From Candidatus Elulimicrobiales bacterium (GTDB lineage Bacteria > Patescibacteriota > Minisyncoccia > Phycocordibacterales > UBA5272): DNA of 64,000 bases. Shown here one piece after another: positions 3,888 to 48,274 of this stretch. The translations under genes were made by a program, and so were the position numbers. The stretch spans positions 193,606-257,605 of the forward strand of contig JAYFPW010000002.1 of NCBI GenBank assembly GCA_034927475.1, written 5' to 3'. The notes under the pieces were generated by a model. That model saw only the letters and a list, made by a program, of their open reading frames with translations, did no database searches and was not told the DNA's origin. Positions within the stretch are counted from its first letter, which is position 1; each line of letters opens with the position of its first letter.

Positions 3888-5165
3888 TTATCTATTAAAC
3901 ACTTTTCCGATTTTAAGTAAAGAATTTGTAAGAACATCAACATCTTCTTTGGAGTTATAAATATGAAAAGATACTCTAGCAAAACCATTTTTAGTTCCCA
4001 GATAATTAACTAATGGCTCCGCACAATGATGTCCTGCTCGTACAGCCACATTGTCCCCCGCCAGAACTTCCGCTACATCGTGAGGATGAATTTCCTTTCC
4101 ATTCACAAAAACTTGCATAGAAACGGTTCCAGAATTATTTTCTGGTAAAGCTGCAAAAGGTTTTATTTCTAAAATATTTTTATTTTGAGAATTAATCTCA
4201 GAAATTTTATTCAAAAAATATTCTACTAATTTTTGAGAATGAGATAAACTTTCTAAACTAATTTCATTCAAAAAATCAACCGCTTCCCCTGCTCCGATAA
4301 TTCCTGCAATATTTGGAGTTCCAGCTTCAAAAACTTTCGCATCACTTCTAAAATCTGTTTTTTCTCTTTCTACGTGAGAAACAATACCTCCTCCAAGAAT
4401 TGTTGGATTCATTTGGCGAGAAATTTCTCTTTTAAGCCAAAGTACTCCCACTCCTGTAGGACCAAAAGCTTTATGAAAAGAAAAATATGCTGCGTCAATA
4501 TATTTTTCCATTTCGTTCATATTTATAGGAAAATGGCCAAAACCAGCTGTCATATCACAAATCACAAAGACTTTATCGTTCTTCTTTTTTATTTCTCTAA
4601 CAATTTCTTTTATATTGTTGATAGTTCCTAAAACGTTGGAAGCTAAAGTTATAGAGACTATTTTGGTCTTTTCAGAAACTAAATTTTCTAAATTAGAAAT
4701 ATCTAAATTGAAATCAGAATCTAATTCTAGAAAAACTAATTCCATTTTTTTATTTTTAGCTAATTTTTGTAAAGGTAAAAGAGAAGAATGATGCTCCATA
4801 ATAGTAGTCAAAATCTCATCTCCTTCGTCTAAAAAAGGAAATTCATCGTCGTGAAGAGAAATTAAATCTATTAACAGATTGCTGGAAGCCGTCGCTCCCG
4901 AAGTCCAAATGATTTCTTCTTCGCGAGAGTTTAAATATTTAGCCAATTTTTCTCTAGACTTTTCAAATTCATTTGTGGCCTTTTCCGCAATTTTTGAACT
5001 AGCCCGATTTACATTACTTCTATAATTAGAATAATATTCATTCATCTTAGACAAAACACTCTTCGGAGTTAAAGAAGTAGCTGCTGAATCTAAATAAATT
5101 AAATCTTTTCCATATTCATTTTTATAATTTTCAAAAATCTGAAATTCTTTTTTAATTTCATTCAT
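3888..5165 (-). CDS. sufS: cysteine desulfurase SufS (class V aminotransferase)
   Basis: YLDSAATSLTP..., PLP-Lys region SFHKAFGPTGVGVLW, catalytic Cys region GHHCAEP. Confidence 0.85.
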   Translation of the reverse strand: MNEIKKEFQIFENYKNEYGKDLIYLDSAATSLTPKSVLSKMNEYYSNYRSNVNRASSKIAEKATNEFEKSREKLAKYLNSREEEIIWTSGATASSNLLIDLISLHDDEFPFLDEGDEILTTIMEHHSSLLPLQKLAKNKKMELVFLELDSDFNLDISNLENLVSEKTKIVSITLASNVLGTINNIKEIVREIKKKNDKVFVICDMTAGFGHFPINMNEMEKYIDAAYFSFHKAFGPTGVGVLWLKREISRQMNPTILGGGIVSHVEREKTDFRSDAKVFEAGTPNIAGIIGAGEAVDFLNEISLESLSHSQKLVEYFLNKISEINSQNKNILEIKPFAALPENNSGTVSMQVFVNGKEIHPHDVAEVLAGDNVAVRAGHHCAEPLVNYLGTKNGFARVSFHIYNSKEDVDVLTNSLLKIGKVFNR

Positions 5166-7011: not shown

Positions 7012-9669
7012 CTATTTTTTCAAAACTTTCTTCAAATAATATCCTGTATGAGAATTTTTCTCATTAGCCACATACTCTGGAGTGCCTTGAGCTACTATTT
7101 TTCCGCCTCCACTTCCTCCTTCTGGGCCAATATCAATAACATGATCGGCATTTTTTATAATATCTAAATTGTGCTCAATGACTACCACAGTATTTCCTTG
7201 ATTTACTAATTTATTTAAGATTTCTAAAAGATTTTTAACATCTTCATAATGAAGACCAATAGATGGCTCATCTAAAAGATAGATTGTCTTTTCTGTATGT
7301 CTACGATATAGCTCGCTAGAGATTTTTACCCTCTGAGCTTCTCCTCCAGATAAAGTAGTAGCACTTTGTCCCAATTCCAAATAACCAAGTCCTACATCAT
7401 CAAGAGATTTCAATCTGTCATAAATAGCTGGAATAGCTTCAAAAAACTTTATACCTTCTTCTACAGTCATCTTTAAAATATCAAAAATATTTTTATTTTT
7501 ATATTTAACCTCTAAAGTTTCTTTTGTGAATCTTTTTCCGTTACAAACATCACAAGTGACATAAACTGTCGGCAAAAAGTGCATTTCAACAGCTATTTCC
7601 CCATTCCCTTCACAAGCTTCACATCTTCCACCAGCTCTATTAAAAGAAAATCTGGAAGCATTCCAACCGCGAATCCTAGCTTCTTCGGTATTAGCGAAAA
7701 GATCACGAATATGGGTCCAAGCTCCTGTATAGGTAGCTGGATTGCTTCTTGGAGTTCTTCCAATTGGAGACTGATCGATTAGAATTGTTCTAGACAAATA
7801 TTCTGTACCAGTTACTTCGTCACAATTATAAACTTTAGCTGTTCTATATTTTCTCTCAAGTCTAGCTAAAAGATTTTTATATAAAATCTCATACATAAAG
7901 CTAGATTTTCCAGATCCAGAAACTCCAGTAATAACATTAAACTTTCCGAGCGGAACTTTCACATTCATATTTTTAATATTAAATATGTGTCCATTCTTAA
8001 TAGAAATAAAAGCCCCATTTCCTTCTCTTCTTTTTTTAGGAGTCTCAATTTCTTTTTCACCACGCAAATAAGCAAGTGTGGTCGATTTTGATTTGTTAGT
8101 TTTAGCTGTTAATAAATCCTCTAAATAATCAGCTACAATAATTTCCCCACCATGCACACCAGCTTTTGGACCAATATCTATCATATAGTCACTAGCAAAA
8201 ATTGTGTCTTCATCATGCTCCACCACAATAATAGTATTTCCCATATCACGAAGCTCTGTCAAAGTTTTAATAAGTTTATCATTATCTCTTTGATGAAGAC
8301 CAATGGTCGGCTCATCTAAAACATACAAAGCACCTACAAGTTTACTTCCAAGCTGAGAAGCTAAACGAATTCTTTGCGCTTCACCACCAGATAAAGTATC
8401 TGCTTTTCTATCTAAACTTAAATAAGTCAGTCCTACATTCAACATAAATTCAAGCCTCGACTCTATTTCATTAATCATCACACTTGCTATTTCAAGATCT
8501 TTTTTAGAAATTACATTTTTTAAATTTTCAAAATATTTTTCAGCTTCTTCTATAGTGAGAGCTGTTATATCTACGATATTTTTTCTATCCGCTTTATTTT
8601 TATCATTTAAGAAAATATTTAAAGCTTCTTTACGAAGTCTTTTTCCGCCACAATCTTCACATTCATCTAAAGCTCCAAAATATTTAGTTCCAAGCCCATT
8701 ACAGGTTTGGCATGCTCCATAAGGAGAATTAAAAGAAAAAAGTCTTGGTTCTATTTCTGGAAAAGAGAATCCACAATTTGCACAAGCAAATTTATTACTC
8801 ATAACAAATCTTTCTTTTTCCCCTTCTTCATTCATCATCTCAATCTCCACTAAACCTTCCGCTCCATCTAAAGCTCTTTCAATAGATTCTGAAAGACGCA
8901 CCATAGCATCTTTTTTACTAGCTAAAAGTTTTAATTCATCAATCAATATAAAATCCACCACAAAAGAAATATCGTGTTTTTTCGTTTTACTCATTTCAAT
9001 TCTTTCTCTCAAACTTTTTGTAACACCATCAACCACTACCTCCTTGTAGCCTTTTCCGAGCATGTCATACATAAGTTGATAATATTCACCTTTTCGTCCA
9101 CGCACAACAGGAGCTAAAATTCGCACACCTAAATCTGAAAATTTTACCCCTTGAATACTTTTAACTTCTTTTTCAAATTTTCTATAATCTATCTTTTTAA
9201 CTTTATCTAAAATAAAATTAATAATTTCATCATTAGAAAGCTTTTCAATTTTGCTTCCACATTCTATACAGTATGGTTTTCCGATTCTGGCATATAAAAC
9301 TCTTAAATAATCATAAATCTCTGTAATTGTCGCGACAGTAGAGCGAGGATTTCTACCGGCAGATTTTTGATCAATAGAAATAGCGGGAGAAAGACCGATG
9401 ATTTCATCTACATCTGGCTTTTGCATTTGGTTCAAAAAATGTCGTGCATAAGCTGAAAGACTTTCCACATATCTTCTTTGTCCTTCGGCAAAGATAGTGT
9501 CAAAAGCTAGAGAGGATTTTCCACTTCCTGAAAGTCCAGTAAAAACAACCAATTTATTTCTTGGCATTTCTACAGAGACATTTTTTAAATTATGAGTCCT
9601 TGCACCCTTAACTATAATTTTGTCTTGTTCTTCTCTCTTTTTATTATTAGGTGAAATATTTTTAACCAT
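7012..9669 (-). CDS. uvrA: excinuclease ABC subunit A
   Basis: 885 aa; two ABC modules (GLSGSGKSS / GVSGSGKSS), two LSGGE signatures, Zn-finger CxxC pairs. Confidence 0.95.
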
Positions 9670-9751
9670 TCTATTATTCTAGCATTTAATATATCTTTTG
9701 AAAATCTGTATCTAAACGACTCTCTTTCTTGTATATTCTGAATAAATAATA

Positions 9752-9779
9752 TTGACAAAAGACTATATTATAGTATAAT
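9752..9779 (+). promoter_or_regulatory. consensus sigma70 promoter TTGACA-16-TATAAT
   Basis: Both hexamers are perfect consensus; located 42 nt upstream of the 9821 ATG. Confidence 0.6.
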
Positions 9780-9820
9780 GAAATAAGTTGTAAATTTTAA
9801 ATTTAAAAGGAGGCCCAAAT

Positions 9821-9976
9821 ATGTTTAAAAAAATTAACGCCATCCGGAGGGCTTTAATAGACTCCAGAAAATGCAAAGACTGGCAGATTGCCAGAGAAAG
9901 ATTTAAACAGGCTCCTAAAAAAAGCCTAGAGGAATTGGTATGGCATAATAAGTTTGTAAACTTATGCCGCTTCTAA
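9821..9976 (+). CDS. small basic protein, 51 aa (not in ORF track)
   Basis: MFKKINAIRRALIDSRKCKDWQIARERFKQAPKKSLEELVWHNKFVNLCRF; AAAGGAGG SD 8 nt upstream; consensus promoter; terminator follows; GC about 38% against a ~28% background. Confidence 0.5.
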   Translation: MFKKINAIRRALIDSRKCKDWQIARERFKQAPKKSLEELVWHNKFVNLCRF

Positions 9977-9986
9977 AAAACAAAAA

Positions 9987-10025
9987 CCTTTACAGATTCG
10001 GTCTGTAAAGGTTTTTTATTTTTAT
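9987..10025. terminator. bidirectional terminator
   Basis: CCTTTACAGA-ttcgg-TCTGTAAAGG (10-bp stem) plus T6. Confidence 0.8.
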
Positions 10026-10031
10026 AATTTA

Positions 10032-10688
10032 TTATTTGACTTCAAAACTTCTAATCAAATCTTTAGCTGCGGTTTTAAAAGCTTCATTATCAGCTTTTTT
10101 ATTTTCTACAATAGCAAGCCATGGACTTTCATCTGTAGCTTTAACTTCTTGAATATAATATTCAGTGTTAATAGTATCATCAATTATATGTTTAACTACA
10201 ACATCTGAGTTGCCAGCAAATTTAATATCTTCAATAACAACATCTGGATTAGCTTTTTTGAATACTTCATTAATATAATCTTCTGCTGTATAACCTCTTC
10301 CCCCTTCAAAAGTTGTGTAAAGAGTCACAAAATTGTCTTTCTCAGCGTCAAAAAGTTTAAACCAATTTGATTGTGAGCCAACTCCTTGAACAGCTTCTCC
10401 ATCTTTTTTGTATAAGAAAGAAAAGTTTAAAGTATTCTCGCCTTCAAAGTTTACAGATTGTTTTCCTTCAAACTTTGCATAATCATCGCTGTTAGCAATA
10501 TCGACTAATTTTTCGCTATTACCATTCCAGATTTTCAAAGATTTACCTTCTAAACCTCTATAAACTAAAAAGCCAATTAATAAAAGTGCTAGCAGACCAA
10601 TGATCCACCAAAGTGTTTTTTTGCTTTTAAAATCAATCTTTTTCATATATTTTCTATACTTTCGTTTGTATAAAGATAATTCTAGCAT
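10032..10688 (-). CDS. hypothetical membrane-anchored protein
   Basis: Single N-terminal TM; start may be the internal MKKIDF (10646). Confidence 0.45.
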   Translation of the reverse strand: MLELSLYKRKYRKYMKKIDFKSKKTLWWIIGLLALLLIGFLVYRGLEGKSLKIWNGNSEKLVDIANSDDYAKFEGKQSVNFEGENTLNFSFLYKKDGEAVQGVGSQSNWFKLFDAEKDNFVTLYTTFEGGRGYTAEDYINEVFKKANPDVVIEDIKFAGNSDVVVKHIIDDTINTEYYIQEVKATDESPWLAIVENKKADNEAFKTAAKDLIRSFEVK

Positions 10689-10753
10689 ATACTATTTTTT
10701 TTGCACTCTTGATTTTTATTGAATTTATTTTATGCTTTTTATTGAAAAATAGC

Positions 10754-11413
10754 CTAATTTTCTATATTCAATTTATAAAATTGTTTCTCTTTTGTATTTT
10801 TTACATACACTGTTGGAAAAAGTTCTATATTTTCTTTAATGCTCATATTTTCAAATAAATTTTGAGCATTTTGAAGTAAAGTATCAAAATCTACAAATAA
10901 ATTTTCTGGTGGACTAAATTTACAAATAGTAATATGACTAGGTAAAGAGAAATCCATATTCGGATTTCCTAAATCTTTAGCTATTTCTTTGTTTAATTTT
11001 TTATCTCCTGACAAAACATAATCTTTATCAGTAAACTTTAATCTTAAAATCAAAATCCTCTCTCTACCAAAAGGAAAAGCATGCCAACTTAATTGTGACC
11101 TATCATCTGGCTTTGGAATTCTTTTTTCTTCATTAAACATTTTTAATTTGTCTAAAGAGTTTTTTAATTTTCCCTTTCCTTCTTCTACAAATTCTCTAAG
11201 TTCACTTTCTTCAATATTTCCCCCACCAATAATTGTAAAGTGAAAAGGTAATCCATCTTCTTTATTTGGAATTATAATATCTTCATATTTAGTTTTTAAT
11301 TTTTTATAAAATTCTCCTAGCTTTTCATTAGTTTTTTTATCAACTTCAAAGAGTAAATTTATTTTTACTTTTAGGTCTTCTTCTAAATTATTTTTAAGAG
11401 AAAGTTCCTCCAT
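10754..11413 (-). CDS. 2H phosphoesterase superfamily protein (LigT/ThpR-like)
   Basis: Two H-x-T-x motifs: PFHFTIIGG and PSHITICKF. Confidence 0.5.
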   Translation of the reverse strand: MEELSLKNNLEEDLKVKINLLFEVDKKTNEKLGEFYKKLKTKYEDIIIPNKEDGLPFHFTIIGGGNIEESELREFVEEGKGKLKNSLDKLKMFNEEKRIPKPDDRSQLSWHAFPFGRERILILRLKFTDKDYVLSGDKKLNKEIAKDLGNPNMDFSLPSHITICKFSPPENLFVDFDTLLQNAQNLFENMSIKENIELFPTVYVKNTKEKQFYKLNIEN

Positions 11414-13464: not shown

Positions 13465-13497
13465 AACAAAAATAAAAAGGAGCTTTTACTCCTTTTT
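13465..13497 (-). terminator. terminator of the 13500..13772 gene
   Basis: AAAAAGGAG-taaaag-CTCCTTTTT plus T-run. Confidence 0.65.
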
Positions 13498-13499
13498 AA

Positions 13500-13772
13500 T
13501 TAATTTTCTGAAAGATTTTTGAAAGGTTCTCCCATTATTTGATCTCGGGTATATTTATGACCCTGCGCTCTTCCTGTGTTTAAAATCTCTTGAATAGCGC
13601 CAGCCAACTCTTCAGCCATACCTTTTGGAGAATCTGACCTCACCTCAATTGTAGTCCACCCACGTTTTCCTTCCTTATCTTCTACAAAGAAACGGAAACC
13701 GTTCGACAAAGCTTCACCTTTTATGGTGTATCCACTCCCGATTGTCGGAAGACTTGAAACATATCTGCTCAT
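13500..13772 (-). CDS. hypothetical 90-aa protein, GC-elevated (about 41%)
   Basis: Faint resemblance to the UPF0150/HicB N-terminal fold (SDSPKGMAEELAGAIQEIL); not secure. Confidence 0.4.
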   Translation of the reverse strand: MSRYVSSLPTIGSGYTIKGEALSNGFRFFVEDKEGKRGWTTIEVRSDSPKGMAEELAGAIQEILNTGRAQGHKYTRDQIMGEPFKNLSEN

Positions 13773-17608: not shown

Positions 17609-18271
17609 TTAATTTAAATTAGCTAAAATTATTGAAGGTTTTTTGAGATCTTTAGCATAATAAACAGCTTCACAAACAGAAGCAGGACTAAGCCCATTAA
17701 TTACTAATGTATCAAAACCTAAATTAATTAATTTTCCATTTAGTTTATTTTCTTTATTGATTTCAGTATTTACTGATTTAGTATAAGCAATAATAATAAC
17801 TCTTCGCATATTATTTTTTTGTATAAATTCTAATGCGGAAAAATTATTTAAAAGATCTAATTCGCTGACAACAATATAGTAAAATCTTTCATGTTTATCT
17901 CCAGAATCTCTAGCGGCTGTATAATAACCAATTGCTTCACCAAAACTATTTTCGACTTTTAGAAAAGTGTTTTTAGTAATATAGTTTTTTAAATTAGAAA
18001 ACTCATCGTACCCAGCATGGACTTTCACTACACTTTCTACTATATTTGCATAATTATTCGTAGAAAAAATGTCATCTTTATTTTTCCAATTTGGAACTTT
18101 TGGATCATGATTAATAGCTTTAAAATATAGTCCAGTAAAAATACCTGAAAGACTTTTGAGATTTCTTAAAGCCTTCTCACCAAAAGAAGAAAAAACATTA
18201 TCTATGGTGATTTCAACATCTTGCTGTACTAAAGCAAGCGCATCTTTTTCGTCTTTCGTTAAAGTCTTCAT
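17609..18271 (-). CDS. transketolase N-terminal-subunit homologue, catalytic motifs degenerate
   Basis: LYFKAINHDPKVPNWKNKDDIFS aligns to [27 protein letters not shown], but KGH, GDG and the TPP-binding residues are replaced. Confidence 0.5.
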   Translation of the reverse strand: MKTLTKDEKDALALVQQDVEITIDNVFSSFGEKALRNLKSLSGIFTGLYFKAINHDPKVPNWKNKDDIFSTNNYANIVESVVKVHAGYDEFSNLKNYITKNTFLKVENSFGEAIGYYTAARDSGDKHERFYYIVVSELDLLNNFSALEFIQKNNMRRVIIIAYTKSVNTEINKENKLNGKLINLGFDTLVINGLSPASVCEAVYYAKDLKKPSIILANLN

Positions 18272-22194: not shown

Positions 22195-23271
22195 TTAAAG
22201 AATTTTTGCAACTTTTACAGTGTGTTCAATTAAAGTATTTGCGTATCCAACCTCATTATCGTACCAAATAAGAATTTTTACTAGATTTCCATCAACAACT
22301 TTAGTCATTTGTAAATCTACAATACCTGCGTAACGTAATCCTAAAATATCGCTTGAGACTAAATCCTCATCACTTACTGCCAAAAGGTTTTTCCATCTTT
22401 CTTCTTTACTGGCATTGGTTAAAATTCTATTTATCTCTTCAGTACTTGTATTTCTTTTAGAGATAAAAGTTATATCTGCAATACTTCCGGAAATTGTTGG
22501 TACACGAATAGAAAGCCCATCAAATAAACCCTCTAATTTTGGATAGGCTTTAGTGAAAGCAATAGCTGCTCCTGTAGTAGACGGTATAATATTTTGCGCT
22601 GCAGCCCTTCCTTCTCTATAACCTTTTTTACTAGAGCCATCAATTAAAGCTTGTGAAGCTGTATAAGAGTGAACTGTATTTAAAATTGCTTTCTCAATAC
22701 CTATAGCTTCATCCAAAATAGCTATAGCTGGAGAACCGGCATTTGTAGTACAAGAAGCATTGCTAGTTATAACAGAATCTTTTAGTTTTTCTTCATTTAT
22801 TCCCATAAGCACCGTATCACTTTTTCTCATGCTGTTTTTTAAATCTTTTGCTGGGGCAGACAAAATAACTCTTTTTGCTCCAGATTCGATATGAAAGTGT
22901 GATTTATCTGCGCTCACAAAAGCTCCAGTACATTCAACGACGATTTCTACACCTAGAGAATTCCAAATTTTGTCTTGTATAAAAATATTTGGGTCTTTTT
23001 CACTTAAAAACCTAATCTCTTTTTTATTTCCATTTGGTAAAACTAAAACTAAATACTTTTCTTTTTCATTAATAATTTTAGCTTCTATATTTCTAAAACT
23101 TTTTTGCCTGTAAACAGTATCGTAATTTAGGAGATAAATCATATTATCCAAATCCCCCAAATCGTTAATAGCGACAATATCTATTTCTTTTAAAGCTTTT
23201 TCATCCATTAAAGCAAGCTTTAAAAAAGCTCTACCTATTCTACCAAAACCATTAATTGCGATTTTCCTCAT
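22195..23271 (-). CDS. gap: glyceraldehyde-3-phosphate dehydrogenase (type I)
   Basis: INGFGRIGR, SNASCTTN, WYDNEVGY. Confidence 0.9.
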   Translation of the reverse strand: MRKIAINGFGRIGRAFLKLALMDEKALKEIDIVAINDLGDLDNMIYLLNYDTVYRQKSFRNIEAKIINEKEKYLVLVLPNGNKKEIRFLSEKDPNIFIQDKIWNSLGVEIVVECTGAFVSADKSHFHIESGAKRVILSAPAKDLKNSMRKSDTVLMGINEEKLKDSVITSNASCTTNAGSPAIAILDEAIGIEKAILNTVHSYTASQALIDGSSKKGYREGRAAAQNIIPSTTGAAIAFTKAYPKLEGLFDGLSIRVPTISGSIADITFISKRNTSTEEINRILTNASKEERWKNLLAVSDEDLVSSDILGLRYAGIVDLQMTKVVDGNLVKILIWYDNEVGYANTLIEHTVKVAKIL

Positions 23272-29168: not shown

Positions 29169-31010
29169 TTATCTATCTGGAGGAATTTCGTAATAGCTTA
29201 TTAAATAGTTAACCAAACTAAAAAAAGATTCTTTTAATGTTTGAGAAGCGTATTGTGCCCCCCTTGGATCTACTTGATATAAGAAAATAATATATTTAGG
29301 ATTTGTCGCTGGAAAGTATCCGAAGAAAGAGTGTAAATATTTATCTTCATAATATTTACCAGTGTTAGGATTTGAAACTTGTGCGGTACCTGTTTTTGCC
29401 GCAACTGTATAATGTGGATTTTTTGCATTCATAGCTTCATCGACAACTCTTGTAAGTATCTTACTAATCCTTTCACTTGTTGAGGTGCTTTGAAAAACAT
29501 TAATAGGTTCATCTTGAACAATAACTTTTGTTGTTCCATTGTCATAACTAATACTTTCTACTACATGCGGAGTAACAAGCTTTCCTCCATTACCAAGAAC
29601 AGCTAAAGCTCTAATAGTTTGAATCGGAGTAGTAGCAATACCTTGCCCAAACCCGGCGGTAACCAAATCTACTGCAACTTTAGAATCTAAATTGCTTACC
29701 AAACCAGAAGCTTCAGATGGTAAATCGATACCAGTATATTCTCCGAAACCAAATTTGTGAAAATACTCACTTAAATTACTTCCGCCAATTTTTTCTACTA
29801 AGAAAGCAATACCGACATTTAAAGAGTCAGAGAGAATTTTTTGAAGTGGAGTATTTGGTCCTCGGGCAACCTTGTCATAATTAGAAACTCTATAACCATT
29901 CAAGACTATAGATCCGGTGTCATTATATGTTGTTGATTCATTCACCAAACCCATATCTAAAGCGACAGCAACAGTCAAAGGTTTAATAATAGAACCCATT
30001 TCATACACGCCAGAAACCAAATCATTGTTATATACAGAGATATCTGACACTTCCCGATAGTTATTTGGATCAAAAGTCGGAATCTCTTCCATGGCCAAAA
30101 TAGATCCGTCATTAATATCCATAACAATTGCTCCAATTTTTTGAGAATTCCATCTAGCTTTAGCGTCCCCCAACAGTTTTGCCACATATCTCTGAACGTT
30201 TGCATCGATGGTTAAATTTATATCACCCTCAGAAGAAGCGTGTTGCAACATTCTGGATGTATCTTTATTTTCTATATCGCTAGAATTAAAATCTGAAAAA
30301 ACTTCAGCAAAAAAGTTTGAATTAACTATATTTTTTTTATCTAAAACGTCATTGTAATATCTCTCGAGTCCATAAAGTCCAGTTTTTTTATCTTCGGAAA
30401 AGCCTACGAAACCAAAAACTTTTGCGCCAATATCTTTTTCGAAATAAACTCTACTCTTTTTTCTACTCACAATAAGACCTTTCATTCTAAGGGAAACCAG
30501 TTCATTCGCTATTTCTTCTGGAACATTTTTTAAAAGAATTTCATAACCAGAATCCTTTTGATGCATTTTTTCTAAAAAACTATCTTTATCTAAAAAAGAA
30601 ACTATTTTTGATGAAGAGCTTGCACCTTCTACAATTTTTGAATTATAATCTTCAAAAACTTTTGAAATTTTTGAAAAATAATCATTTTCTAATTCGGAAA
30701 GATTTAAGCCTTCTTCAATCCTTTTTTCAAAAAATAAATTTATTGTCTTTGGGTCTAAAGCTAAATCATACTCATTAGACATGGCTACAGCCGGAGAAAA
30801 AGTCCCTTTTTTATTAGTAAAAAATATAGACCCTCTATCAAAATTTTCTCCCGTATCATAAAAATATTGACTCTCACCAGCTCTTTTATATTCAGCACCA
30901 TGAATTATTTGTAAATAAAAAAGTCTGGCAATAATTAAAGCAAATATAAAAAAGATAACCAAAACAAAAATATTTATTCGGTTGTGAATTAATTTATTTC
31001 TTTCTGACAT
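29169..31010 (-). CDS. ftsI: peptidoglycan D,D-transpeptidase FtsI (class B PBP)
   Basis: N-terminal TM; GSIIKP (SxxK), SDSLN (SxN), KTGTA; in dcw context. Confidence 0.85.
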   Translation of the reverse strand: MSERNKLIHNRINIFVLVIFFIFALIIARLFYLQIIHGAEYKRAGESQYFYDTGENFDRGSIFFTNKKGTFSPAVAMSNEYDLALDPKTINLFFEKRIEEGLNLSELENDYFSKISKVFEDYNSKIVEGASSSSKIVSFLDKDSFLEKMHQKDSGYEILLKNVPEEIANELVSLRMKGLIVSRKKSRVYFEKDIGAKVFGFVGFSEDKKTGLYGLERYYNDVLDKKNIVNSNFFAEVFSDFNSSDIENKDTSRMLQHASSEGDINLTIDANVQRYVAKLLGDAKARWNSQKIGAIVMDINDGSILAMEEIPTFDPNNYREVSDISVYNNDLVSGVYEMGSIIKPLTVAVALDMGLVNESTTYNDTGSIVLNGYRVSNYDKVARGPNTPLQKILSDSLNVGIAFLVEKIGGSNLSEYFHKFGFGEYTGIDLPSEASGLVSNLDSKVAVDLVTAGFGQGIATTPIQTIRALAVLGNGGKLVTPHVVESISYDNGTTKVIVQDEPINVFQSTSTSERISKILTRVVDEAMNAKNPHYTVAAKTGTAQVSNPNTGKYYEDKYLHSFFGYFPATNPKYIIFLYQVDPRGAQYASQTLKESFFSLVNYLISYYEIPPDR

Positions 31011-38236: not shown

Positions 38237-39163
38237 TTATTGAATATCTATATAATAATCTCCATTTTCTCTGGTATTGTAATAACCTTTTACAAAAAGT
38301 ATTTGATAAAATGCTGCTTCTTGTTTTTCGATTTTTACTATTTCTCCAAGAGTTTTATTTTCATCCCTTGCTAAATATACAATAGTACCGGTAGAAATAT
38401 TAATATTTTCTGGAATTTTAGCTACAAAATCTCCACCTCCATACCCAATAAAATCAATAAGAATACTATTTGAAGAACTAACTGGGGTACTCATACTAAT
38501 ATTTATATCATCAGAAAAAGGTTGGGAAATATCAGAGCTTGTAGCAATTGTTGTGCTAGAACTCGAAGCGTTTAAATTTAAATCTTCTTCAGAATTTATT
38601 AAAGGAATTTTACTTTCAAAATTTTGAGAAAAAATTATCCCTTCTACTTGATTTTTATCTTTAGAAAAAAGAGAGACTAAAGATGTCTTTTCTGATGAAG
38701 AATTTACAACACCAATAGCTTTATTTGGATACAAAAAAACGATATTCCCTTCTGCGACACCATTATCTTTTCCTTTGTCTAACAAAATAGTATTGTAGAC
38801 ACTAGTAAAGTCTGAAAATATTTTTTTAGCTACAATCTTTTTTTCCGAAGAAATATTTTCCTCAAAAATTTTTCTATTTTTTTCTGTCTGTAATTCATTT
38901 TCCAAACGAGATATTTCACTTAGTAAATATTTTTTATTAGTAAAATATCCAAAAAAATTATTGAAAACTTTTGAAACAAAATTTGTGGAGTTATTGGCTG
39001 CGACCAAAACTGTCTCAGGAGCTCCGACACGAATATTATTACTATTAAAATAGTTTCTCAAAAAAGGAAAAGAAAATAAAAATACTAAGTAAATAATAAT
39101 AAATAAAATATTAAATTGGAACTTTTTCTTAGTTCTTAAATTCATAATACGATTATACAACAA
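38237..39163 (-). CDS. mreC: rod shape-determining protein MreC-like
   Basis: N-terminal TM plus coiled coil plus beta domain; position between mreB and mrdA. Confidence 0.55.
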   Translation of the reverse strand: MLYNRIMNLRTKKKFQFNILFIIIYLVFLFSFPFLRNYFNSNNIRVGAPETVLVAANNSTNFVSKVFNNFFGYFTNKKYLLSEISRLENELQTEKNRKIFEENISSEKKIVAKKIFSDFTSVYNTILLDKGKDNGVAEGNIVFLYPNKAIGVVNSSSEKTSLVSLFSKDKNQVEGIIFSQNFESKIPLINSEEDLNLNASSSSTTIATSSDISQPFSDDINISMSTPVSSSNSILIDFIGYGGGDFVAKIPENINISTGTIVYLARDENKTLGEIVKIEKQEAAFYQILFVKGYYNTRENGDYYIDIQ

Positions 39164-46297: not shown

Positions 46298-48274
46298 ATG
46301 TATATTTTAAAAATAATTCCTATCGCTAAAGGTTTACCAGAAAATTATTTTTCTTATTTTTCAAAAGAAAAACTTCCTTTGGGTTCTTTAGTGGAGATAA
46401 AAATTAAAAATAGAAAAGTTGCTGGACTAGTTTCTGAGACGAGTAAGGTAGAAAAAGAAAAAATAAATTTAAAATCTCAAAAATTTACCCTAAAGAAAAT
46501 TGAAAGGGTTATAAAAGAAAATTTTATAGATGAAAATCTCTTTCAAAGTATTGTCGAAGTTTCTATTTTATTAGGAGTAAAAGAAAGTGAAATTATAAAA
46601 AATTATATTCCTGAATTTGTATTTGAAAATATAGATTCATTTTCCGATGAAAGTTTTTTAAATAAAAAAAGTATAGAAAGATATTTTATAGAAAGTTTTG
46701 AAAAGAGACATTTAGAATATTTGAATCTTATAAAATATAATTTTAAAGAAGGAAAGACTTCTCTTATATTCTTTCCGACTATTAGCGACCTAGAAACCAC
46801 TAAAAAATATTTTGAATCTAAAAATATACAAAATATTGCAACCTTTCATTCTAGTCAAACTAAAAAAGAATTAAAAAATAATCTTGAAAAATTAAAAGAA
46901 AAAAGTCTTTTAATATTATCAACTCCTTCACTTTTACCATTTTTAATAGCTAATAAAATTAATTTAAAAACTGTAATTTTAGAAAAAGAAAATTCTTATA
47001 ACTACTTTTCCCATGCGGCTAGAAAACAAATTGACGCGAGAGAAATAATTAAAAAAATAGCTAAAGACTTGAATTTAGATTTAATTTTAGCTGGTAATAT
47101 TTTATCTTTACAAAGTTTTAAAGATTTTAAATCCTCAAAAAATCTAGAATCCGCAAATAAAAAAAGTTTTACTATTATAGATTTATCAAAAGAAAAAGAA
47201 TTAAAAAAAGAAGAGCTAGAAAAAAGAATAAAAAAGATTTCTAATAAAAAAGAAAGTAAGTACAATTCTGTCTATTTTAGTGAAGAATTAATAGAAAAGC
47301 TGGAAGAAATTAAAAAAAATAAAGATAAAGTATTTTTATATGCAAAAAGAAAAGGTCTTTATACCGAAACTATTTGCTCAGATTGTAATACTATTTTTAA
47401 ATGTAGAAATTGCGATAAACCCTATATTTTATTTAAAAAGCAAAATCAGAATGAAGTTGAAAGATTTTATATCTGTAGCAATTGTAAAGATAAAATAGAG
47501 CTTAAAAAAAGTGAAAATTTAATATGTGAAAATTGCGGAAGCTGGAAAATGAACACTCTCGGTGTAGGAACTCAAGGTATTGAAGAAAATTTAAAAGAAA
47601 TTGGTTTTAAAACTTTTCTTCTTGATTCGGAAAGTGTAAAAACTAAAAAAGAGATTAAAAATATTTTAGAGTCTTGGCAAAAAGAAAAGTCCTCTATTTT
47701 AATCGGCACCGATTTAGCTTTAAATTTTCTGAATAGAGATTTTGAAATAGATTTGGGAGCAATCATTTCTCTGGATTCACTTTTTTCAATTCCAGAAATA
47801 AATATAGATGAAAAAATATTAAATATTTGTTTAGAGTTAAAGGAAAAAATAAATAGCAGAGAAAAAATAATAATTCAAACTCGCCTCAAAGAGCAAGAAG
47901 TTTGGGATTATTTAAAAGATAATAATATTTTAGGATTTTTAAAAGACGAATTAGAAATTAGAGAAAGTTTTAATTTGCCTCCTTATGCAAATATTTTGAA
48001 ATTTAGATTAACTAAAAAAGAAATAAGAAGCAAAGAAAATATTGAAAGAATTTTAAAAAGAATATTCGACGAAGAAAAAATAAAATTTGAAAAAATAATT
48101 TGGAGAATAGAAAAAAAAACTGGTAACCATATTGGGATTTTAACCCTATCAAAAGATTTCTGGCAAATAAAAAAGGAAGGAAAAATTTTCCCTTCCAGTT
48201 TTGCGAAAAAAGTCATTACCCTTCTCCAGGATTTTCACCTGGAAATAAATCCACCCAATGTACTTCTGCCATAG
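46298..48274 (+). CDS. priA: primosomal protein N' (PriA)-like, ATPase motifs degenerate
   Basis: N-terminal 3'BD-like LPLGSLVEIKIKNRKVAGLVSE; Cys4 zinc region CSDCN...CRNC...CSNC...CENC; Walker A reduced to KEGKTS, DEEH replaced by EKEN. Confidence 0.55.
   Translation: MYILKIIPIAKGLPENYFSYFSKEKLPLGSLVEIKIKNRKVAGLVSETSKVEKEKINLKSQKFTLKKIERVIKENFIDENLFQSIVEVSILLGVKESEIIKNYIPEFVFENIDSFSDESFLNKKSIERYFIESFEKRHLEYLNLIKYNFKEGKTSLIFFPTISDLETTKKYFESKNIQNIATFHSSQTKKELKNNLEKLKEKSLLILSTPSLLPFLIANKINLKTVILEKENSYNYFSHAARKQIDAREIIKKIAKDLNLDLILAGNILSLQSFKDFKSSKNLESANKKSFTIIDLSKEKELKKEELEKRIKKISNKKESKYNSVYFSEELIEKLEEIKKNKDKVFLYAKRKGLYTETICSDCNTIFKCRNCDKPYILFKKQNQNEVERFYICSNCKDKIELKKSENLICENCGSWKMNTLGVGTQGIEENLKEIGFKTFLLDSESVKTKKEIKNILESWQKEKSSILIGTDLALNFLNRDFEIDLGAIISLDSLFSIPEINIDEKILNICLELKEKINSREKIIIQTRLKEQEVWDYLKDNNILGFLKDELEIRESFNLPPYANILKFRLTKKEIRSKENIERILKRIFDEEKIKFEKIIWRIEKKTGNHIGILTLSKDFWQIKKEGKIFPSSFAKKVITLLQDFHLEINPPNVLLP

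Follow-up and report, generated by a model that had tools for sequence, protein, structure and literature searches.

Is a short open reading frame (ORF) beside uvrA that is skipped by some annotation pipelines a real gene, and if so, what kind of product does it encode? This question is raised by positions 9752-10025 of a 64,000-nt stretch of the Candidatus Elulimicrobiales bacterium contig JAYFPW010000002.1 (the window), where an initial annotation made from the sequence alone had noticed a promoter, a Shine-Dalgarno (SD) motif, a 51-codon ORF and a terminator in close succession. With a probability of about 0.6, this stretch forms a complete monocistronic unit that encodes a cytoplasmic micro-protein of 51 residues, strongly basic and all-alpha. 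The protein is an orphan, known from two alleles that are both confined to a single narrow clade of Patescibacteria. The comparison of the two alleles indicates that the conserved object at the locus is a protein and that the ORF, despite being skipped by some pipelines, is a genuine gene whose protein product is under selection. This gene evolves fast and appears to be dispensable. The outcome is an orphan family that is new but ordinary in kind, with two members, and already public as a hypothetical protein.

Evidence for a protein-coding gene

The relatives of the window's UvrA were ranked, their contigs were fetched, and the slot upstream of uvrA was compared by synteny. A second 885-aa UvrA (P0126), found in the 90% cluster of the best match, is 96% identical to that of the window. 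Its contig (L015, from sample SRR12762297) carries a called 51-aa gene in the same slot and on the strand opposite to uvrA, with the product MKNKKNIFAIFTILREIRDCKNAEIARQKFAESRRGSLIERLWERKLVSLI. The L015 allele recurs without any nucleotide difference in another sample, DRR804634 (L017). In the alignment of the peptides, which has two 2-residue gaps at the ends, 41% of the residues are identical and the score is far above that of shuffles (z = 11.3), whereas the local alignment of the ORF DNA is not significant against Markov-resampled sequences (z = 0.28). Across the 49 aligned codons, the nucleotide identity is 0.54 and indels occur in multiples of three. The identity at codon positions 1, 2 and 3 is 0.57, 0.65 and 0.39, respectively (positions 1 and 2 versus 3, Fisher p = 0.014).

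For comparison with neutral expectation, unconstrained substitution was simulated down to the observed nucleotide identity. The expected protein identity was 23.5 ± 4.3%, and the probability of reaching at least 41% was 1e-4. The probability of observing no stop codon was 0.025, and a codon-position contrast like the one seen had a probability of 0.005. Of the six frames, the sense frame scores best for codon usage in both alleles, and the chance of a 51-codon stop-free run at the local composition is approximately 0.02-0.03. The 20 residues that are invariant between the alleles comprise 13 hydrophobic or Cys residues at helix-core spacings and five Lys or Arg. They include the hydrophobic residues I5, I8, L12, I23, A24, F28, L36, W41, V46 and L48, the basic residues R16, K19, R25 and K44, and C18.

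Since frame and length are kept, similarity is significant for the protein and not for the DNA, and the codon-position pattern fits coding, the protein rather than an RNA appears to be conserved. The features of a coding sequence, namely a kept frame, a third position that is the most variable and a protein similarity above the DNA expectation, were all found in a single orthologous pair. The initial annotation had regarded it as a sign of a non-coding RNA if related genomes did not keep the frame, or if only nucleotides or structure were conserved. The outcome favours coding: in the one related lineage, frame and 51-codon length are retained and the protein is 41% identical, while the DNA is nearly randomised and there is no common RNA structure.

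Architecture of the cassette

The elements of the cassette and its immediate context are listed in Table 1. The promoter, the 8-nt AAAGGAGG motif and the ORF with its peptide were all present in the sequence as first described. The terminator, originally noted with a 10-bp stem, was confirmed as a hairpin of 16 pairs followed by a T-run.

Table 1. Positions of the cassette elements and adjoining promoters in the window
Feature	Position	Strand	Details or basis
Sigma-70-type promoter TTGACA-16-TATAAT	9752..9779	+	-35 at 9752-9757, -10 at 9774-9779
Inferred A/U-rich 5' leader, 35 nt	9786..9820	+	Read from sequence
AAAGGAGG Shine-Dalgarno-like motif, 6 nt ahead of ATG	9807..9814	+	Present in sequence
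ORF, 51-aa basic protein MFKKINAIRRALIDSRKCKDWQIARERFKQAPKKSLEELVWHNKFVNLCRF	9821..9976	+	ATG 9821; TAA ends 9976
Bidirectional intrinsic terminator, 16-bp stem 9982-10016, T-runs on both strands	9982..10025	.	Terminator scan and fold
uvrA's own promoter, context outside the cassette	9667..9708	-	Read from sequence
Promoter-like TTTACA-16-TATAAT, 11/12, overlapping the plus-strand promoter	9767..9794	-	Promoter scan

The promoter is the sole 12/12 match in 64 kb on either strand, with approximately 0.12 expected from first-order Markov resamples. Matches of at least 11/12 number eight, compared with 3.2 expected from the same resamples. Spacing, position upstream of a gene and conservation in relatives are those of a sigma-70 promoter, and transcription would start at about 9786, judging from the promoter position. 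The high expression proposed initially derives solely from the promoter consensus and is a prediction. The terminator stem starts 6 nt past the stop codon of the ORF and has the properties of an intrinsic terminator. It scores on both strands and is common to the 51-aa ORF and the 218-aa gene (10032-10688), which is convergent with it. As uvrA lies on the minus strand (7012-9669), the ORF is located upstream of and divergent from uvrA and not, as first stated, in the uvrA-downstream spacer.

The GC content of the ORF is 0.38 in the window and 0.34 in L015, compared with 0.305 in genes, 0.30 in the whole window and 0.21-0.25 in the adjoining spacers, and the ORF is thus GC-elevated as had been noted. 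Neither paralogues nor repeats of the cassette were found in the window or in 11 related loci, and there are no flanking repeats. The overlapping 11/12 match on the minus strand was considered as a second uvrA promoter or as a source of antisense RNA, and both were rejected. On reading the reverse strand of L015, the match is not conserved, there is no strong minus-strand call at the equivalent place in L015, and the site points away from the ORF. This match is probably fortuitous.

Deposition status and independence of the sequence

The ORF had been described as unannotated. This is incorrect, as the identical protein is already deposited in NCBI and UniProt (MPL62186.1 / UniRef100_A0A644T5H0, 'hypothetical protein SDC9_07790 [bioreactor metagenome]'), where it adjoins the UvrA MPL62187.1 on a 333-kb contig. 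A further deposition of this UvrA, MEA4910716.1, is assigned to Candidatus Elulimicrobiales (Patescibacteria group). An exact-protein look-up of P0001 gave no match. The expectation that default annotation would miss the ORF was partly borne out: the Logan gene calls for DNA of the same strain omit it, but the NCBI submitter called it.

The exact UvrA of the window was found on seven contigs. In Logan, three assemblies of independent origin (L012-L014) match the window at 99.98-100% identity across 4.9-8.7 kb, their 362-bp gap upstream of uvrA is identical to that of the window, and all same-strain contigs are identical within the cassette. Logan matches to this strain include SRR35946792, SRR27460155 and SRR30551937. 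Because identical DNA occurs in at least three independent samples and the second allele in two independent samples, the cassette is not an assembly artefact.

Evolutionary rate

Between the window and L015, amino acid identity and nonsynonymous divergence (dN) are 96% and 0.025 for UvrA, 83% and 0.075 for a 219-aa gene, 78% and 0.125 for the 218-aa gene, 77% and 0.142 for a 168-aa gene, and 41% and 0.56 for the 51-aa ORF. A 60-nt sliding comparison delimits a sharply bounded island at 9720-10020 with 45-65% nucleotide identity, and the sampled flanks are 77-98% identical. The proportion of synonymous differences (pS) in uvrA is 0.47. This matches the identity of the island, which therefore lies at approximately the neutral level, and an allele swap is not needed as a source of the divergence. 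The excess of synonymous changes at conserved residues of the ORF is marginal (9/18 versus 29% in the neighbours, p = 0.066). The locus is a clean example of fast evolution of a small accessory protein in ultra-small genomes, with 41% identity where UvrA retains 96%. Due to this fast divergence, searches of databases with billions of entries miss orthologues that synteny can find.

Properties of the protein and database searches

The window allele has a mass of 6.3 kDa, an isoelectric point (pI) of 10.45, a net charge of about +8.6 and a grand average of hydropathy (GRAVY) of -0.68. The corresponding values of the L015 allele are 6.1 kDa, 10.59, about +6.5 and -0.38. Both alleles contain five to six acidic residues and neither has a hydrophobic face or segment. 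The AlphaFold2 (AF2) model of the window peptide places helices at residues 3-19, 21-30 and 36-50.

No homologues beyond the two alleles were found in about 15 billion proteins. A word-indexed search of 5.8 billion proteins with the peptide and a two-sequence profile returned only the known alleles, and an exhaustive phmmer search of 1.84 billion representatives found the peptide itself and the protein P0122. Back-translated pattern scans of GTDB genomes, JGI metagenomes and IMG/VR with peptide and profile gave no new homologue among the matches listed, and tblastn against the INPHARED phages gave no match. Pfam, NCBIfam, PADLOC and PDB sequences had no match to the peptide, and in PHROGs only phrog_14741, a family of unknown function, was hit at a non-significant E = 0.057. 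These negative results have to be read with the length and divergence of the protein in mind, since at 51 residues and 40% identity a match is bound to fall short of significance in databases of this size, and the L015 allele was found only via synteny. The homology search suggested initially yielded one orthologue by synteny, and the sequence searches returned only the known alleles and no family.

The hit to P0122 (491 aa, E = 6e-8) was rejected because its E-value is a sum over seven PPR-like repeats of 35 residues with at most 10.3 bits each. We take P0122, from reading its sequence, to be a PPR-like repeat protein with a C-terminal Smr-like region. Residues 16-49 of the window peptide do resemble one 35-residue repeat of the PPR/TPR helical-hairpin type (at most 10.3 bits, z = 6.9 versus shuffles), but the L015 allele reaches only 1.0 bit and the two-sequence profile 6.6 bits against P0122, so that the likeness is not a property of the family. 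Membership in a PPR/TPR-like repeat family is not indicated, with no Pfam match. An RHH or HTH DNA-binding domain, for which an HMM (hidden Markov model) or fold match and, in the case of RHH, an N-terminal beta-strand would be expected, is not indicated. The small basic ribosomal proteins (bS21, bL36 etc.) do not fit either: there is no HMM match, the identity of 41% contrasts with the 96% of UvrA, and relatives whose UvrA is 85-93% identical lack the 51-aa gene.

The protein of the window is strongly basic and predicted to be soluble, unlike the majority of bacterial micro-proteins characterised so far, which are hydrophobic and reside in the membrane. The closest general resemblance is to orphan micro-proteins of about 50 aa encoded by bacterial small ORFs and listed in surveys of small proteins, with which it shares size, a monocistronic layout with its own promoter and terminator, lineage restriction, fast evolution, the lack of a domain and inconsistent gene calling. 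Sda of B. subtilis, an example of the small basic helical regulators and checkpoint proteins, forms a helical hairpin of 46 aa. The similar size, the helicity and the stand-alone gene are shared with Sda, but the 51-aa protein has no sequence or fold match to it.

Translation initiation in the clade

The SD motif of the cassette was initially called a textbook one. Its sequence and spacing are indeed present, but it is an outlier in its clade and has no counterpart in the orthologue. Among the 60 long genes of the window, an SD-like 4-mer precedes four. Among 130 genes that encode 100 aa or more, taken from the window and nine related loci, none has the 5-mer SD core and two have a 4-mer, and 46 have a TAnnnT ending 5-8 nt before the ATG. 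In many genes a (TGn)TATAAT-like box has its end 5-8 nt before the ATG, for example in 3888-5165(-), 17609-18271(-), 22195-23271(-), 38237-39145(-), 46298-48274(+) and uvrA at 9669(-). This suggests widespread leaderless mRNAs from extended -10 promoters in the genome. For uvrA itself, the extended -10 TGcTAGAAT (9684-9676) ends 6 nt ahead of the ATG (9669), which would imply a leaderless mRNA. This stretch is conserved in L001, L006, L011 and L015, and was called with the TG in L015.

The near-absence of SD motifs agrees with a report that some Parcubacteria have lost the anti-SD: a 16S anti-SD motif was detected in only 48% of them, and in the others SD helices are suggested not to form (Tsurumaki et al. 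2022, PMC9297842). The leader of the L015 orthologue is A-rich and without an SD, and reads AAATAAAGACAAAATG at the position of AAAGGAGG. It is about 15-20 nt longer than the leader in the window and only partly alignable with it. The AAAGGAGG motif is thus strain-specific and atypical, and any function as an SD would depend on the 16S 3' end of the genome. It is not called non-functional here, because an 8-mer at ideal spacing is unlikely to occur by chance.

One other such motif exists in the window, AAGGAGG 5 nt before the ATG at 446. It is part of a second canonical cassette at 370-750 with TTGACG-16-TATACT (370-397), a 93-aa ORF (446-727) and a terminator (735-750). The product of this ORF is hydrophobic and two-TM-like, and all its family matches are below threshold.

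The variable slot beside uvrA

All relatives keep the 218-aa gene next to uvrA, while the content between them varies. The slot is empty in L001/L002, L006 and L011 (UvrA identity 93%, 87% and 85%), where 103-134 bp hold a terminator and the uvrA promoter. L005 (88%) has a promoter-like site, about 70 nt without an ORF, and a terminator. A DUF7736 gene occupies the slot in L003/L004 (89%), ClpP that of L007 and L008 (87% and 86%), with an additional 113-aa gene in L007, and an unrelated 84-aa ORF that of L009/L010 (85%). This 84-aa ORF was examined as a homologue and rejected: hhalign aligned only eight N-terminal residues, BLASTP gave E = 0.58, the shuffle z-scores were -0.6 and 0.2, and there is no DNA similarity to the 51-aa family. 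The DUF7736 gene is intact in L003 (3486-3851, 121 aa), whereas an internal deletion in L004 (3558-3821) leaves an 87-aa ORF in an otherwise near-identical locus.

A TTGACA(A) box lies 76-85 nt from the uvrA start in all seven lineages that have a divergent gene or transcript in the slot (window, L015, L009, L005, L003, L007 and L008), with TTTACAA as the version in L003, and is absent from the three empty-slot lineages (L001, L006 and L011). The gene facing the box differs and may be the 51-aa ORF, the 84-aa ORF, none, DUF7736, the 113-aa gene with ClpP, or ClpP. In the four lineages aligned (window, L015, L009 and L005), the -10 region reads ..ATTATA.TA.AAT, and the L015 promoter is TTGACA-16-TAGAAT (11/12) with the same 16-nt spacer. 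Since the position of the box is kept across lineages with different content, the promoter is real but belongs to the region upstream of uvrA from of old and was not brought by the 51-aa gene. The L015 terminator is at the same place and has a wholly different stem, CCCTTTGC...GCAAAGGG. This context is perhaps more useful than the gene itself, namely a clade with apparently near-wholly SD-less and often leaderless initiation, and a fixed divergent promoter by uvrA with exchangeable payloads.

Two further ORFs lie nearby. The 219-aa gene (10754-11413, minus strand), located between uvrB and the 218-aa gene, is distributed like the 51-aa ORF, being found in the window and L015 only. It has no Pfam, NCBIfam or PDB-sequence match, and its two H-x-T motifs (HFTI, HITI) are, on our reading of the sequence, presumably reminiscent of 2H phosphoesterases. 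A 90-aa ORF (13500-13772, minus strand) with its own terminator-like hairpin (13473-13498) is situated between a PGA_cap gene and uvrB, which are 37-57 bp apart in L001, L003, L005 and L006. This ORF has no Pfam match and may be another lineage-specific small insertion.

Proposed function and competing explanations

Upstream of uvrA lies a bidirectional promoter region whose position is conserved. Its divergent arm is predicted to drive transcription of the 51-aa gene, with an end at the terminator shared with the convergent neighbour. The DNA between these two elements is a variable slot that holds unrelated genes or nothing, depending on the lineage. Translation would probably start by an SD-independent route as in the rest of the genome, with AAAGGAGG as a recent strain-specific addition. 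With low confidence, the protein may fold into a small three-helix unit and bind a polyanion, be it a nucleic acid or the acidic surface of a protein, which would make it a dispensable accessory factor with a modulating role rather than an essential component. Polyanion binding is weakly suggested by charge, solubility and the conserved surface Lys and Arg, and nothing supports a membrane or secreted role. The regulatory role proposed initially is a guess.

Several observations weigh against a gene with a settled function. All evolutionary tests rest on one sequence pair. The ratio of nonsynonymous to synonymous differences (pN/pS) of the ORF is approximately 0.5 with its own saturated pS and approximately 0.85 with that of the neighbours, so that constraint is real but weak, and the dN/dS analysis proposed at the outset gave this qualified answer from one orthologous pair (dN 0.56). 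No 51-codon sample taken in frame from native genes has a codon usage as poor as that of the window allele, and its score is reached by 10.6% of the samples taken out of frame; the L015 allele is at the 2nd percentile of native in-frame samples. The structural model, also suggested initially, is helical with three helices, but its confidence is only moderate, with a predicted local distance difference test (pLDDT) score of 70 and a predicted template-modelling score (pTM) of 0.38. Family HMMs, PDB sequences, fold and neighbourhood provide no clue to function. In addition, the mRNA body of L015 folds better than shuffles (z = -4.0), and a role at the RNA level is possible for this allele.

The main rival is a proto-gene, in which a rapidly drifting spacer is transcribed from the conserved divergent promoter at uvrA and has recently given rise to the 51-codon ORF, de novo or from unrecognisable DNA. 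It would be translated because the lineage needs no SD, and would have little or no fitness effect, or one based on generic charge and helicity. The restriction to two alleles among about 15 billion proteins, the neutral level of divergence across the whole island, a pN/pS of up to about 0.85, the atypical codon usage and a high pI as is typical of ORFs from A-rich DNA all fit this explanation, as does the occurrence of the same promoter position ahead of an unrelated 84-aa ORF in L009 and of no ORF in L005. Nevertheless, we regard it as unlikely, since the protein identity is far above neutral (P = 1e-4), the frame has remained open (P = 0.025), the codon positions vary as in a coding sequence, and the conserved positions form a hydrophobic-core pattern. 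Moreover, the GC content of both ORFs (0.38 and 0.34) exceeds that of genes (0.305) and spacers (0.21-0.25), unlike birth from the local AT-rich spacer. If it were true, the birth of a gene in a reduced genome would be tractable at this locus. A bolder combination, which we consider quite unlikely, is that the region upstream of uvrA is a conserved strong divergent 'expression slot' whose payload turns over among lineages. The 51-aa gene would then be a young micro-protein born in or recruited to that transcript and caught as selection becomes detectable, with one strain having newly acquired a perfect SD in a lineage otherwise without SD use. An imported cassette, either moron-like or acquired horizontally from a phage or a donor that uses SDs, which would have entered a recombination hot-spot by uvrA and have a conflict function such as phage/host interaction, is very unlikely. 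The autonomous layout and patchy presence between conserved neighbours are shared with phage morons, and the strong SD and full -35/-10 promoter stand in an otherwise SD-less genome that mostly uses extended -10 or leaderless promoters. The higher GC, the atypical codon usage, the unrelated payloads of the slot in relatives and the shared distribution of the 219-aa gene two genes away point in the same direction. Yet the gene is chromosomal and outside a prophage, and its promoter is ancestral to the site and not imported, as the -35 box is at the same distance from uvrA in seven lineages. Furthermore, the SD is absent from the other allele, no match was found in IMG/VR, INPHARED phages, PHROGs or PADLOC, and flanking repeats or copies in the window and loci are lacking.

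A functional small RNA of about 235 nt (9786 to about 10020), in which the ORF is incidental or secondary, is a further rival. A strong promoter and terminator do bracket a short transcript, L005 keeps both with only about 70 nt without an ORF between them, and the predicted 237-nt transcript of the window folds at z = -3.4 versus shuffles, to which the z = -4.0 of the L015 body can be added. The score of the window transcript is due to the terminator, however, as the ORF body alone has z = -1.2. RNAalifold of the window and L015 found essentially no shared structure (-3.7 kcal/mol), and conservation is visible at the protein level only. Rfam was scanned over 9000-10800 at E up to 10 and over the whole window at gathering scores. 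No family was at or near its gathering score for the cassette, the best being the trpB motif with 33 bits against a threshold of 59. The weak matches were all anchored on the terminator hairpin, and only tRNAs passed across the whole window. Altogether, a small RNA is highly improbable. The same applies to a cationic membrane-active peptide, be it a small toxin or a leaderless class II bacteriocin of the aureocin A53 / lacticin Q type. These two families comprise Trp-containing, all-helical peptides of about 51 aa with a net charge of about +8 and no leader peptide, and the window peptide resembles them in size, charge and predicted helicity. Its hydrophilicity (GRAVY -0.68, and -0.38 in L015), the five to six acidic residues and the lack of a hydrophobic face or segment argue against membrane activity, and there is no Pfam or NCBIfam match. 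The neighbours are uvrA and the conserved 218-aa gene, with no adjacent immunity or export gene. A type I toxin is disfavoured by the same lack of a hydrophobic stretch, and there is no overlapping antisense RNA, as the two promoter-like sites fire away from each other and the one on the minus strand is not conserved. The toxin-like character suggested initially has no support, given these points and the absence of a partner gene and of any PADLOC, Pfam or PHROG match. A monocistronic gene for a fast-evolving basic micro-protein is the preferred explanation of the locus.

Further observations in the window

ARAGORN reported a 97-nt tRNA-Leu(caa) at 30604-30700 on the minus strand, inside a 613-aa ORF (29169-31010). 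It does not reach the Rfam gathering score and is probably a false positive. A 152-aa protein at 761-1219 on the plus strand has a hydrophobic N-terminal part, followed by a highly acidic, near-perfect repeat (EDVDEIQEDIDDIQEDIE...) that makes up its C-terminal half.

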